Virus record (IMG/VR): IMGVR_UViG_3300035109_000099 | Coordinates: 1-38,787 of that record | Length of the DNA: 38,787 bases | Source of the DNA: a virus | Lineage: Duplodnaviria > Caudoviricetes | Strand: one strand, 5' to 3' | In this document: positions 14,782 to 18,931 of the stretch, piece after piece | Numbering within the stretch: position 1 is the first letter of the stretch | How the letters are laid out: each line of letters starts with the position of its first letter | The notes under the pieces: generated by a model | Told to the model about the DNA's origin: nothing | What the model saw: only the letters and a program-made list of their open reading frames with translations | Databases searched by the model: none | Made by a program: the position numbers and the translations under genes

Positions 14782-15366
14782 TTAATTTTTGAGCGATTGC
14801 TTGTACGCTTCCGGGTCAATTTGCATCTGTCGGCAGACGGCTAATTCCTCATCGCTTAACTGGTCGTCAGCAGCTGGAGGCTTCTTGCCGGTGGTCTGCA
14901 TGCCGGATAGCGCGGCAATCGGTTGGGCGACATCGAGATAGCCTTGTAAAGCCGCAATGTCTTTTTTGCCCATATCGGTAAGCCACTGTTTAGATGCAGC
15001 GCCGATAATGCGACCGGTTTTAACGCCGTCCTCGATCAGCTTTTCGATCTGCATATCTACGGTATCGCCGGATAAGGCTGCCAGTTTGCCGTTTAGTTCA
15101 TTGACGACTTCAATCGGCACGTATTTAGCGGGATCGGGTGTTAAGCTGATATGCGCCGTTGCGGTGCTGACTTGCGTAGTCAAGGCGGCGATTTCAGCAT
15201 TTTTGGCGGTCAAGTGATCGATCAAGCTGGTTGCGGCGGCATCGGCTGCATTGCTGCTGAGTAATGCCTTGGCTTTATCAAGCTCGGCTTTAATTTCATC
15301 CAACGTTGCTAACGTCGGCAAATTAAACATCCAGCGCAATTGCTCTAAAAGTTCTTCAATATCCAT
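14782..15366 (-). CDS. Internal in-frame scaffold protein (Mu gpZ-like)
   Basis: In-frame ATG at 15366 (MDIEELLEQLRW) preceded by GGAG; matches the nested I/Z arrangement of Mu. Confidence 0.65.
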   Translation of the reverse strand: MDIEELLEQLRWMFNLPTLATLDEIKAELDKAKALLSSNAADAAATSLIDHLTAKNAEIAALTTQVSTATAHISLTPDPAKYVPIEVVNELNGKLAALSGDTVDMQIEKLIEDGVKTGRIIGAASKQWLTDMGKKDIAALQGYLDVAQPIAALSGMQTTGKKPPAADDQLSDEELAVCRQMQIDPEAYKQSLKN

Positions 15367-15942
15367 AATGGACTCCGTGGGGTTGAGTAATGTATTAGCC
15401 GCCAAAAGGTTGGCAGCCGCGACTGTAACGGCTTGCATGCCGTCAATCGCGGGGTTGTTGGTCAGCGCGACGTTGATAATGTCCAGCACTTCGCCGGTTT
15501 TGGCATCGTAAGAAAACACAGGTGATACATAGCGGATTTCATCGGCGGCAATATGGCCCGATGCAGCCGCCGTAAATTTTGGATTTAGCGCAAACAGACC
15601 GGGATGAGCGGCGGGAGGTTCTCGCCACTCCAGCGTTTGCGGACCGATCCAGCCCGCAGCAACGACCGGCTTGCCGTTTTGCGCCGTCAACAGCGATTGG
15701 TGTTCGTAGTCGATGACAATGTCGTTTGAACGCCGGGCTACTGTTGCGATTAAGCGCTGTGCGGCGGCGGCATCCAAACGCCAAGGGCCTTTGCCGCGTA
15801 AAGCGCCGCGCGGTGCATCGAAAGTGCCGGCCGGGAATAATTGCATGGCAGCATCACCGCTGCCGCTCAGCTCAAAAGAGCAGACGGCAATCGCGGCTTT
15901 AGCGGGCAATGGTACGGATTGAGATGAGTGTTTTTTTGTCAT
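14782..15942 (-). CDS. Mu-like prohead protease gpI with C-terminal scaffold
   Basis: IVIDYEHQ, AAGW, RYVSPVF and ALTNNPAIDGM motifs; start set at 15942 because the 15951 ATG overlaps the -10 hexamer. Confidence 0.92.
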   Translation of the reverse strand: MTKKHSSQSVPLPAKAAIAVCSFELSGSGDAAMQLFPAGTFDAPRGALRGKGPWRLDAAAAQRLIATVARRSNDIVIDYEHQSLLTAQNGKPVVAAGWIGPQTLEWREPPAAHPGLFALNPKFTAAASGHIAADEIRYVSPVFSYDAKTGEVLDIINVALTNNPAIDGMQAVTVAAANLLAANTLLNPTESIMDIEELLEQLRWMFNLPTLATLDEIKAELDKAKALLSSNAADAAATSLIDHLTAKNAEIAALTTQVSTATAHISLTPDPAKYVPIEVVNELNGKLAALSGDTVDMQIEKLIEDGVKTGRIIGAASKQWLTDMGKKDIAALQGYLDVAQPIAALSGMQTTGKKPPAADDQLSDEELAVCRQMQIDPEAYKQSLKN

Positions 15943-15949
15943 GGACTGC

Positions 15950-15994
15950 ATCTTAGGCAGTCATGAGCGAGGGGGGTATGAGAAGAACTTCTCA
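15950..15994 (-). promoter_or_regulatory. Activator-dependent late promoter for protease/capsid genes
   Basis: Perfect palindrome TGAGAAG-AA-CTTCTCA (15979-15994), 23 bp, then TAAGAT (15955-15950 on the - strand). Confidence 0.75.
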
Positions 15995-16024
15995 GTGGGT
16001 GGTTTTGGTTTATTATGTGGTTTT

Positions 16025-16051
16025 GTTGGGTTACAGCTAGCGCCTAACCCA
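16025..16051. repeat. REP-like palindrome remnant
   Basis: TGGGTTA (16027-16033) pairs with TAACCCA (16045-16051). Confidence 0.45.
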
Positions 16052-16191
16052 CGGCTGTTGCTTTGCGCTTAGCGTTTATTTGGCCAGGGCAGATGGTGTA
16101 AGAGAGTAATATAGTTCTATACTCGAATCGGCTGGAGGCCGCATTCTGCCGTTAAAATTTTCATGTTTAAAAATATAAAGTCATATACTGG

Positions 16192-16401
16192 CTACTGATC
16201 ATTGCGCCACCATGTCACCCGCTCCCAGTAGGCAGAACGTTCACGAAGGCCAGATCTAAAATGCTCTTCTTGTTGCATTTGACTTTCTGTAAGCCCACAT
16301 TCAATCGCCATAAAACTCAGTTCACTAAGGGCTTCTGCGGCCTTATCCATTGCAGCTATGGCATTTTTTACTATTTTTTCACGCTGTTTAATCGTGCTCA
16401 T
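16192..16401 (-). CDS. Hypothetical protein
   Basis: 69-aa helical ORF with an AGGTGA RBS. Confidence 0.6.
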   Translation of the reverse strand: MSTIKQREKIVKNAIAAMDKAAEALSELSFMAIECGLTESQMQQEEHFRSGLRERSAYWERVTWWRNDQ

Positions 16402-16580
16402 CTAGTCACCTACTTACTCGACTTAATTACCTGGGTATAGGACTCTATTACTCAGTTTCCAACTTTATTACTTACCCACAGATGGCTGAATTCGTCAACC
16501 AGAACTGGGTGCTGCCAGGCTAACCTGCAACGCTGATAGGTGCATTTATTGATATATGCACCTATTTGTGTGTCTATTTC

Positions 16581-16736
16581 GCGTTAGCAGCCCTCTACTC
16601 GCTTGAATAGATGACAGCTCCATGACATCGACAGCACGTCGAATCTAGTCATCGCCATTTTATGATCTGTAAAAAACTCCGACTGCCTGTCTTTATCATC
16701 AAAAATAATTGCCCAGTCAACCTGGGCTTCTAACTG
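16581..16736. repeat. Copy 1 of an exact 156-bp direct repeat
   Basis: Base-for-base identical to 17088-17243 (offset 507). Confidence 0.95.
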
Positions 16737-17012
16737 CTCTAATCCACTCCATTGCCAATCGCTAATTCCATAAGGCCGTCGATGGCTTTTGTAGTGCTCT
16801 GGGCGGCGTTCAATGTCGCGGTACAAAGCCATTTTATTTCTGCTGTACTGCAACGGCTCTCTTGGGGCCGCGCTTTCCTTCGCATGCAGCCGCCACCAGA
16901 CAGCGGTCCAGTAGTAACAGCGCGGCCAGCCTTCCTTGCGCTCCATCTCTCCAGCGTGGCACATAGCTTCTTGCAGAGTCATTGGTTTGGCTATTCTTTG
17001 TGTCATCAGCAT
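16584..17012 (-). CDS. Hypothetical cassette-borne protein (fusion of two cassette ORFs)
   Basis: ATG at 17012 lies within the attC R'' core (alternatives 17006 or TTG 17066); the last 50 aa are identical to those of the neighbouring ORF; the stop TAA overlaps a GTTAGCA core. Confidence 0.55.
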   Translation of the reverse strand: MLMTQRIAKPMTLQEAMCHAGEMERKEGWPRCYYWTAVWWRLHAKESAAPREPLQYSRNKMALYRDIERRPEHYKSHRRPYGISDWQWSGLEQLEAQVDWAIIFDDKDRQSEFFTDHKMAMTRFDVLSMSWSCHLFKRVEGC

Positions 17013-17096
17013 AACTCTCTGGTCAAATGGGACGCGCCTAAGGTTCAGCGCGTTACTAAAATTCAATCGTGCGCGCCCTTTACCAGGGCGTTAGCA
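17009..17096 (+). other. Integron-type attC recombination site (88 bp)
   Basis: R'' GCATAAC, 5-nt spacer, then GGT[C]AAA[T]GGG[A]CGCGC, which pairs perfectly with GCGCGCCCTTTACC (17071-17084) once three extrahelical bases are looped out; 5-nt spacer, R' GTTAGCA. Confidence 0.85.
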
Positions 17097-17243
17097 GCCC
17101 TCTACTCGCTTGAATAGATGACAGCTCCATGACATCGACAGCACGTCGAATCTAGTCATCGCCATTTTATGATCTGTAAAAAACTCCGACTGCCTGTCTT
17201 TATCATCAAAAATAATTGCCCAGTCAACCTGGGCTTCTAACTG
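17088..17243. repeat. Copy 2 of the exact 156-bp direct repeat (mini gene cassette body)
   Basis: Begins at core GTTAGCA and ends at inverse core TTCTAAC; the two cores are 6/7 complementary. Confidence 0.95.
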
Positions 17244-17375
17244 TACATTTAACTCAGACCCGCCGACCTGTGGCGGTTGTGTAGCCATGTAGGGTGCGCA
17301 TCGCGCACCATTTACGAATGCTCTTATTATGGGGCGTTGAAAAAGGGGCGCAATGCGCACCCTACATGGCTTCAT
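17091..17375 (-). CDS. Hypothetical ORF reading through REP and attC remnant into the cassette body
   Basis: Start overlaps the upstream stop (TAATG); the N-terminus is encoded by repeat DNA, so it may be a chimera or non-functional. Confidence 0.4.
   Translation of the reverse strand: MKPCRVRIAPLFQRPIIRAFVNGARCAPYMATQPPQVGGSELNVQLEAQVDWAIIFDDKDRQSEFFTDHKMAMTRFDVLSMSWSCHLFKRVEGC
17235..17276 (+). other. Truncated attC (left arm only)
   Basis: TTCTAAC-TGTAC-ATTTAACT-CAGAC, then a CCGCC/GGCGG hairpin; no L'/R' arm, a REP pair follows instead. Confidence 0.6.
17283..17371. repeat. Inverted REP doublet (GTAG family)
   Basis: 19-bp inverted repeat AGCCATGTAGGGTGCGCAT / ATGCGCACCCTACATGGCT; same REP as at 28733-28843. 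Confidence 0.8.
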
Positions 17376-17614
17376 TACTCATGCCCATCCTCATTCACAA
17401 AAAAACTTAATAATGCTTTGCGATGGATAAGAGCAGCATCACGCGATGCATGTGCGATACGGTTTAACACCCACCCCATTTGGCTGCTTCTTTCTTCAAA
17501 TATCCTTGCACCAATTTCACTCTCATCACATGTGATATCCGCGATGTAAAAAGTATCGCCGTATGCAGGATAATCAGTAATTGGTTCTGGTACTTCTATG
17601 CCGTTTATATTCAT
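17375..17614 (-). CDS. Hypothetical phage protein
   Basis: 79 aa, GAGGA RBS, starts MNINGIEVPEP. Confidence 0.7.
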   Translation of the reverse strand: MNINGIEVPEPITDYPAYGDTFYIADITCDESEIGARIFEERSSQMGWVLNRIAHASRDAALIHRKALLSFFVNEDGHE

Positions 17615-17656
17615 TTAAATTCCTCAGTATTGTAGAGTGCGCGGCGCGCTGTGTAC

Positions 17657-17685
17657 TGCATTCCCACGGAGCCCGTGGGAACGAG
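17657..17685. repeat. REP-like palindrome
   Basis: TTCCCACGG-AGC-CCGTGGGAA (17661-17681) in an intergenic position. Confidence 0.6.
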
Positions 17686-17723
17686 AGATTGTCCGTCATT
17701 TTTTTATACCTACCAATTGGCTT

Positions 17724-17909
17724 TTATTCATCATCAAGATATGCTCTCAAGGCGTCCTTGAAATGCTGTGTCGGGTCTCCATATCCCCAACCAATAAAAT
17801 GTGCGACAGATTCATTTAATTGCTGCCAATTAGCCGCCCTAGCGTCAAGATTGTCTAACAATTTTTTAAGCTTTTCTCTTTCGCCCGCTTGTTTCTTTGC
17901 TAAAGACAT
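17724..17909 (-). CDS. Hypothetical protein
   Basis: 61 aa with a GGGAG RBS. Confidence 0.6.
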   Translation of the reverse strand: MSLAKKQAGEREKLKKLLDNLDARAANWQQLNESVAHFIGWGYGDPTQHFKDALRAYLDDE

Positions 17910-18032
17910 TTTTATATAGCTCCCACATTATGAGATAACGTTTATAAACGATTTATGAGCCAGTTTAAGCCGCACTAAGTAGTTTTACTACCCCGTTACA
18001 GCGGCCACTATCGTTTTCGCGCCTCAAATCGC

Positions 18033-18428
18033 CTATATCTCAAATAAATCCATATTGAGCATTAAGGGCTCGACGGCATTAATAATCGTGCTGAGCTGCC
18101 GCTCGGTTAATCCGTATTTGCGCACCAGGTTATGCATGCTCATATGCTCGCGATGATCCTGCCTGATCATCTCATTCCTGACCGCTCGCCGCGCCGCTTC
18201 CGCTTTAACTATCGTCAACGGCTCGGCCCCGCCAAACACCTCGCTCAACTGACACGCCGCCGGATAGCCCAACAACTGGCTCAGGGGATGCTCCGGGATC
18301 ATGTGGACCGGCACTGATACACGCATTCCGCCGTAGGCGCTCCACAGCTTCCACATGACCTCATCGCCGCAGTATTCGGCGATTTCCAACAAGCTGGCAG
18401 GCAGCAAATGGCGGGGCAGATCGCTCAT
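18033..18428 (-). CDS. mor: Mor/C family transcription activator
   Basis: LPASLLEIAE...YGGMRVSVP...RNEMIR...LVRKYGLTERQLSTII (C-terminal HTH); directly after gemA. Confidence 0.85.
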   Translation of the reverse strand: MSDLPRHLLPASLLEIAEYCGDEVMWKLWSAYGGMRVSVPVHMIPEHPLSQLLGYPAACQLSEVFGGAEPLTIVKAEAARRAVRNEMIRQDHREHMSMHNLVRKYGLTERQLSTIINAVEPLMLNMDLFEI

Positions 18429-18931
18429 TACTCAGCACTGCTCGCGGCTGGTTGTGTGCAACGGGCTTGCCATTTTTTCAACGCCTCGATCACGCCGGAC
18501 GCTTGTTCGCTGCTGAGCCATTGCAGCGCATCAACGCCTTTTAAGCGTTTGACATACGCAGCCAGACTGGCTTCGGATGGATTGCGGACAATGCCCTGGT
18601 TATGCATTTCCAGCCACAAGGCCCGTATTTTGCGGGACTGCGCATCGTCGGCCAGTTTGCGCCGTGAGGTTTTTCTTGGGCCCTTAACTTTATTGCCGGA
18701 TTTGTATTTGACCTTGAAGCCCTTGGTTTTCATGGCTTCCACGGCTTTAAACAACTGGGTATTGCTCAGCGTGGTTGCGGAATAACGACCGTCTTTCAGC
18801 GTTGCGCCCTGCTGAGGCAGCCAGATGCCGTAATAAAACGCGTCGTCGTAGCCTAATTCTGCCTGGCCGACACGCAGCAGCTTGTAATAGCGATTGCGGT
18901 CGAACTCGGCTTGTCTGTTGGGATGTTGCAT
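18428..18931 (-). CDS. gemA: GemA / DUF1018 family regulatory protein
   Basis: KIRALWLEM...SEASLAAYVKR...VIEALKKW signature; gemA-mor pair. Confidence 0.85.
   Translation of the reverse strand: MQHPNRQAEFDRNRYYKLLRVGQAELGYDDAFYYGIWLPQQGATLKDGRYSATTLSNTQLFKAVEAMKTKGFKVKYKSGNKVKGPRKTSRRKLADDAQSRKIRALWLEMHNQGIVRNPSEASLAAYVKRLKGVDALQWLSSEQASGVIEALKKWQARCTQPAASSAE

Follow-up and report, generated by a model that had tools for sequence, protein, structure and literature searches.

An integron-like array without integrase in a Mu-like prophage, with small phage genes antisense to attC

Results and discussion

The prophage and its accessory block

The window (the whole stretch of 38,787 nucleotides that was analysed) is a Mu-like (transposable) prophage: in the gene scan a DDE transposase, transposition protein B, Mor, a Mu-type protease and a portal are present, together with capsid, tail and packaging genes. 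Its edges coincide with gene boundaries, namely the ATG of a Flp-pilin-like gene at the start (a weak Pfam match, below cut-off) and a stop codon at the end. The same prophage occurs at 100% identity in G193, a draft genome from the family of a Methylobacter genome. Over positions 1-38787 the gene order is tail, capsid, protease, mor and early genes leftward, then repressor, lysis region, terminase and portal rightward, which departs from the order in Mu. The features between and including protease and mor are listed below (positions in the window).

14782..15951, - strand: Mu-type head protease (phrog_328), flank
15996..17937: accessory block, from the protease promoter region to the end of the early operon, in place of ~100 bp of empty-site relatives
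16192..16401, - strand: 69-aa ORF, lying downstream of attI between the arms of a 19-bp inverted repeat
16536..16589, + strand: attI-type site, crossover G16583/T16584 (weight matrix from 10 host sites; alignment)
16581..16736: repeat copy 1, body of cassette X with its attC missing (R' GTTAGCA 16583-16589 to R'' TTCTAAC 16728-16734)
16584..17012, - strand: 142-aa ORF, an in-frame fusion in which ~91 aa of phage family Y are followed by the C-terminal 51 aa of X; start ATG within R'' (17010-17012), stop TAA within the core of attI
16735..16736: TG microhomology at the X/Y junction, probable deletion point of an attC hairpin (six Y loci and a residual TGCT)
16735..17015, + strand: body of cassette Y (homologs in other loci), ending in R'' GCATAAC (17009-17015)
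17009..17096, + strand: complete attC, 88 bp, crossover G17090/T17091 (structural scan, covariance model, fold probability)
17088..17243: repeat copy 2, cassette X (R'' 17235-17241)
17091..17288, - strand: 65-aa ORF X, N-terminus PPQVGGSELNVQL from an attC arm, native start replaced (its homologs P0022 and P0023 share the motif and begin farther upstream)
17235..17280, + strand: left arm of a 123-nt attC family (TTCTAAC), right arm lost (full versions in L094-L097)
17280..17374: inverted pair of host REP-like repeats (34-nt), with many copies in genomes G001 and G193
17375..17614, - strand: 79-aa phage ORF of the block, without attC (phrog_18768, E 1e-4)
17724..17909, - strand: 61-aa ORF, no attC detected here; a 50% identical homolog is a first-position reversed cassette of a chromosomal integron
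18033..18428, - strand: Mor-type late activator (PF08765 over cut-off), flank

We regard 15996-17937 as an accessory insert because two relatives, L128 and L129, match both flanks (window 15914-15995 and 17938-18497) with a mor-to-protease gap of only 239 bp. The interval is empty (~200-240 bp) in L128, L129 and L007 and holds a different gene in L004/L005; L130 and L131, which carry another head module after mor, were left out of this comparison. An earlier note on this DNA had proposed to look here, in related prophages, for variable content breaking at G|TT. Among the Mu-like relatives there is none: their mor-protease intervals contain no integron cores, and the covariance model described below finds no attC in L129, L005, L007, L130, L131 or L002. 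Moreover, the 1.9-kb insert extends ~590 bp beyond attI on the left and ~660 bp beyond the last attC arm on the right; since its ends are far from the cores, the block did not enter at them. At 17933-17939, the right end of the insert, AGATAAC resembles an R'' but was dismissed as too weak.

The same comparison bears on a very different explanation, according to which the genome is permuted in the manner of B3 and the interval is either host integron DNA enclosed by the phage ends or a chimera of the assembly. If the ends of a B3-type genome were joined, mor and protease would come to lie side by side, as they do here, and the 156-bp repeat in the block exceeds short-read length. The mor-protease junction nonetheless recurs in L004/L005, L007, L128 and L129 and is thus native, with homology on both sides of the insert, which rules out phage ends joined around host DNA. 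In addition, the window has no terminal repeat, host cassettes are mostly sense-oriented, and depths are even, with the Y loop equal to the flanks (in one run, possibly the source). Taken as a whole, this explanation is extremely improbable.

For the 69-aa ORF no family was found. For its inverted repeat (16104-16122 / 16435-16453, 89%) a search of G193 turned up no further copy.

An attI-type site and a complete attC

The earlier note had seen a third integron core at 16583. The core is present, but not as part of an attC: the candidate 16519-16590 folds well (z -4.6) but lacks paired L boxes and a covariance-model match. Instead it is of attI type, matching sites beside Methylobacter-type intI genes; in particular, the stretch that precedes G16583 corresponds to the one located upstream of intI in Methylobacter integrons. 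A weight matrix of 10 host attI sites (103-157 bp from the intI start) has its top match in the window at 16583 with 22.3 bits, against 9.6 bits for the next match and 15.6 bits for the best of 25 shuffles. These sites come from a pattern applied to 31 intI loci (14 within 3 mismatches, 10 within 2), and this pattern was partly drawn from the window, so that the selection of the 10 sites is not fully independent. For this reason prophage L111, which was fetched via its attC, is the stronger check: here the best matrix match (26.0 bits) lies at the end that heads the L111 array. Sites of attI type head the arrays in L096, L097, L099 and L204 too. The attI core of the phage departs from the host type at several bases, and its neighbours in the window are the 69-aa ORF and the protease rather than intI or Pc. 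Near attI there is one weak promoter-like match on the + strand (15989-16016), a count below chance.

Searching 301 genomes of the family with the attI pattern at 1 mismatch gave 8 matches, fewer than the reversed control, and only the 2 exact matches were therefore used. The pattern also retrieved 7 viral loci; the match in L098 was rejected as a chance match inside an ORF, and L101 and L102 have an attI-type site with no attC by the structural scanner. Elsewhere in G193, locus L169:1440-1520 (contig C10) holds an attI-like sequence (26.2 bits) followed by sense ORFs; neither attC nor intI was detected in this 3-kb locus. The loop of the attI-proximal palindrome (window 16556-16569) has the sequence CACCTATTTGTGTG, of which L096 has the reverse complement; a micro-inversion may account for the difference.

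The 88-bp site at 17009-17096 has all hallmarks of an attC, as the earlier note had claimed: R'' GCATAAC, 5-nt spacers, R' GTTAGCA and a 14-bp stem once C, T and A of the top strand (G, A, T on the bottom strand) are looped out. It is the sole match of the structural scan in the window, and 20 shuffled windows gave 4 matches, none with a stem longer than 6 bp. The attC covariance model, a check that the note had suggested, gives a clear answer as well: 32.7 bits (E ~1e-5, + strand) for this site and 10.3 bits for the runner-up in the window. The model was built from 19 attC sites beside bacterial intI genes (19 of 32 candidates, with the 13 from pattern-found loci omitted). An Rfam scan returned only chance hairpin matches, under the gathering scores.

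With 3 pairs of the R and 6 pairs of the L box enforced, the recombinogenic fold of the bottom strand has a probability of 0.19; it lies 1.2 kcal/mol above the minimum-energy fold, which, when left unconstrained, is a different one. Values above 0.1 are counted as high under a slightly different constraint (PMC5371416, in part), and the median is 0.45 among host sites (27 sites) and 0.2 among those of phage and Y-cassette loci (28 sites). Internally, the attC is identical at 73 of 74 bases to one in the Methylobacter prophage L111, where a different gene is attached. All in all, the sites in the window are almost certainly real integron-type sites. With one complete attC, one half and one deleted, the window stands beside the CALIN definition of at least two attC and no integrase.

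All three sites of this attC type (window 17002-17021, L111:7178 and L111:8690) have AGAGAG in the bottom-strand spacer, 8-10 nt before the ATG. It is possible, judging from the sequence, that the attC spacer thus has a built-in ribosome-binding site.

A duplicated cassette and a fused gene

The order of the array is attI, X, (attC lost), Y, attC, X again, half attC and REP pair. Both copies of X lie in an exact repeat of 156 bp (16581-16736 and 17088-17243). In one run containing this DNA, possibly its source, the depth is 85.5 for the 156-bp contig, 48.9 for the loop between the copies and 46-54 for the flanks, which fits a real duplication; the G193 contigs end inside each copy. No joint that skips the 507-bp unit from attI to attC is present among the contigs of this run, although contigs are unable to reveal such a joint across a repeat of this kind.

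The earlier note had described two ORFs on the - strand, with TAA stops formed by GTTA cores, one ATG within R'', and an orientation shared with phage transcription. All of this stands, mor and protease being co-oriented with both ORFs, but the ORFs are not independent: they share the 156-bp repeat, and since its copies are identical, both TAA stops are one stop duplicated. A single fixed frame through the cores was also rejected, as X stops at the TAA in the core and Y homologs read through it as AAC. The conserved proteins X and Y lie on the - strand; in 8 of 15 distinct Y homologs the corresponding frame of the other strand is interrupted by stops. A 121-aa ORF on the + strand (16752-17117) was discarded as a real gene, having no PHROG match and no conserved frame.

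Homologs of the 142-aa ORF span only its N-terminal ~60%, that is the Y part, and in none of 70 Y homologs is X attached to Y (the X-like protein P0016 lies outside that set). What stands in its place is informative: 12 of the 70 end in GHN or GPN, which is the bottom strand of an attC translated, and in 6 of 22 Y loci the very base at which the window switches from Y to X is the first of an antisense attC, the other 16 having no attC at that place. The R'' of Y, AGCATAAC, is complementary to GTTATGCT, of which TGCT alone remains at the X/Y junction, where the TG of 16735-16736 is also present. Because six Y loci have an attC here and TGCT survives at the junction, we conclude that an attC was likely lost between X and Y, at the TG microhomology, fusing Y to X in frame.

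The search for a function of Y gave no Pfam match for the fusion ORF and no PHROG (best Atlas score 0.83, unnamed), and a single-protein scan of viral contigs gave no match with the fusion. For Y the structure prediction is a confident four-helix model (pLDDT 91.8), to which Foldseek finds no match in PDB or BFVD at E <= 0.001 (best Z 6.7).

The second attC and the REP pair

A second attC at 17235, which the earlier note had recognised by its left arm, is there only by half: the left arm is present, the right arm is absent, and the REP-like pair stands where it would be. In relatives of this arm the extrahelical base is C, which is T in the window. The loop of the complete 123-nt sites in L094, L096 and L097 carries a ribosome-binding site and the ATG of an antisense gene, and these sites code for the N-terminus PPQVGGSELNV; the N-terminus of X and of its homologs matches this attC-coded one.

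Within the REP pair, upstream of the array genes, lies a terminator-like hairpin on the - strand (17362-17346). Such hairpins are near chance in number (4 against 2.0 +/- 1.6 expected). No - strand promoter for the array genes was found in the window. A second host REP-like repeat of the insert (17639-17686) has several copies in G193.

Polarity and mobility of cassettes in other loci

With the orientation assigned by the longest-ORF rule, 17 of 20 closed cassettes in seven phage loci (window included) are antisense to their attC, 2 are sense and 1 is empty; the 24 cassettes of the 31 intI loci comprise 21 sense and 3 antisense ones. Cassette Y indicates that such units move. Its six attC-flanked copies share 72-100% identity in the final 40 nt of Y and 20-47% beyond the core, and the neighbours change exactly at the core (in three loci, L179, L181 and L189, these neighbours are sense-oriented). 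If a mobile unit is one that recurs in other arrays and whose homology stops at the core, Y is a mobile cassette in 6 of 22 loci; in the other 16 it is no cassette, which speaks against an active system.

Contig G097:C60 (L209:9877-13600, also L158) is the best genomic sign, at the level of sequence, that a host IntI handles reversed cassettes. It encodes an IntI of 330 aa (over cut-off), followed by two reversed cassettes and then three sense ones, in a context of housekeeping genes (recognised from sequence). The reversed cassettes are phage-type, with perfectly complementary cores. The first reversed gene, whose attC belongs to the same type as that of the window, is 50% identical to the window ORF at 17724-17909. 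Very probably IntI shuffles such cassettes in this host family.

In the Methylobacter prophage L111:5125-10330 (G001:C212) an attI and 9 to 11 attC sites, all opposite to the genes, lie between SSB and terminase. In L185:330-1715 two attC recur at a 983-bp period, as a duplicated multi-cassette unit.

The integrase

The window contains no intI, and the DDE transposase is the sole recombinase named among the 56 proteins scanned. In the draft G193 no IntI over cut-off was detected either, a protein search returning only distant tyrosine recombinases. On its contig C64 (L211:4830-5871) a host attI, one sense cassette and an attC are present, with intI cut down to its first few codons. IntI over cut-off occurs in 40 of 61 genomes around G193. 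As the phage has no integrase, the likely traffic of phage genes between phages and bacterial integrons would depend on the host enzyme. That the array is active in this host now is unlikely.

A phage-encoded tyrosine recombinase might run these arrays in place of host IntI, and an ORF that looks from its sequence like a tyrosine integrase does end beside the attI-type site in both L097 and L204. In temperate phages, however, the prophage integrase is usually located at the end of the early operon. Furthermore, the window phage encodes no such recombinase, the site resembles attI beside true intI genes, and a host integron holds such cassettes. We rate this alternative as very unlikely and regard the host IntI as the more probable enzyme.

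The earlier note had gone further and proposed a phage system for shuffling accessory genes with a borrowed host integrase. Reversed cassettes and an integrase acting in trans are borne out by the phage attI, by the breaks of Y at the core and by G097:C60. A system at work in the Mu-like lineage is not supported: relatives are without the array, the insert ends are not cores, two of three attC are broken and no IntI was detected in the draft G193.

Origin of the array

We interpret the locus as an integrase-less integron array in a Mu-like prophage, with small phage genes antisense to attC, likely built by host IntI in trans and likely since decayed (probability roughly 0.7). The window is a real but decayed example; being small and decayed, it serves better as an illustration of the process than as proof of activity. 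The array genes are all co-oriented with the phage early operon, and their starts and stops sit in recombination sites.

The proposed course of events would be as follows. The 1.9-kb block would have entered the slot between mor and protease as one piece through recombination outside the cores, the donor probably being another temperate phage of this host family. IntI would then have cut out cassette X and placed a copy of it at attI (copy and paste). In the resulting X-Y-X the attC between the first X and Y would have been deleted at the 2-nt TG microhomology, which produced the in-frame Y-X fusion. Finally, the REP pair would have displaced the right arm of the last attC. One excisable unit would be left, attI x attC, of 507 bp. 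The genes would be read by a phage transcript from the far end of the array, with the newest cassette last, and the bottom strand of attC would provide start signals; whether they are in fact expressed from the early promoter we consider a matter of even odds.

For the step ascribed to IntI the odds are even as well: IntI may have made the X duplication, and an integrase-free route (a 507-bp tandem duplication at TG plus a deletion between shared GCGTTA hexamers) gives the same X-Y-X sequence. This route leads to the main competing explanation, a pasted piece of another phage's array in which duplication, fusion and REP insertion are due to slippage or illegitimate recombination, IntI never having acted here. 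It agrees with insert ends that are not cores, relatives without the array, two of three attC broken and an IntI not found in G193. On the other hand, the duplicate begins two bases before G/TT at attI, is 100% identical and occupies the first position, just as copy and paste predicts; attI and one attC are intact; and IntI-type shuffling would still be needed in the donor arrays. We therefore find this explanation rather improbable and prefer an array built by host IntI and since decayed.

Relation to known systems

The closest known systems are the sedentary chromosomal integrons of Methylobacter and relatives (intI TIGR02249; L113, L114, L142-L151). The attI sequence, the G/TT point and the anatomy and length of attC are alike, and the fold probability (host median 0.45, window 0.19) and the duplicate in first position also count as likenesses. 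Unlike these integrons, the window has no intI, no evident Pc, antisense genes co-oriented with phage transcription, gene starts inside attC and a cargo of phage families. A complete integron has an intI and genes sense to attC, and the window has neither; it is at best a degraded CALIN with an attI, although it works like an integron array.

Integrons are mostly viewed as bacterial tools, including against phages, and it is an open question how genes become integron cassettes. Here a phage has the attI of the host family, phage genes are found in plain form as well as in reversed cassettes, and such cassettes have been taken up into the newest positions of a chromosomal integron. A tentative wider picture, for which the odds are somewhat below even, is that temperate phages keep their own attI and reversed cassettes of ordinary phage genes, exchange these via host IntI among themselves and with chromosomal integrons, and gain fusion proteins when an attC hairpin drops out. 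If so, phages would not only use integron cassettes but also supply them, and the occurrence of gene Y both with attC ends and without would show cassettes being born. The phage attI, the 88-bp attC and the Methylobacter IntI would be named substrates on which such two-way traffic could be tested.

The earlier note had also ranked this as a candidate for an undescribed system, which holds in part. Clusters of attC without integrase have been published for phage genomes, with IntI1 recombining 5 of 6 tested sites (PMC9892861, Qi et al. 2023, in part); the main-text parts of that paper describe a typical structure, with no systematic antisense polarity and no integrase-less attI. In the literature on phage attC and attI, cassette polarity and cassette origin (mostly open-access and in part, figures and annotation file of PMC9892861 aside) we met no report of reversed phage arrays. 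Copying of the last cassette to the first position at attI, giving A-B-A, is described for aadB in class 1 integrons (PMC8024014, in part); there an active integrase and selection are involved, whereas here the event is deduced from one sequence in which the copied attC was subsequently lost.

Cassette genes are as a rule sense-oriented; most cassettes are promoterless, and inversion blocks their expression from Pc (PMC5027507, in part). The present array was compared with the Vibrio superintegrons too. Inverted cassettes with promoters of their own exist in the latter, for example toxin-antitoxin cassettes. In both the gene faces against the array; no cassette promoter was detected here, and what is the exception in Vibrio is the rule in the phage loci (17 of 20 closed cassettes).
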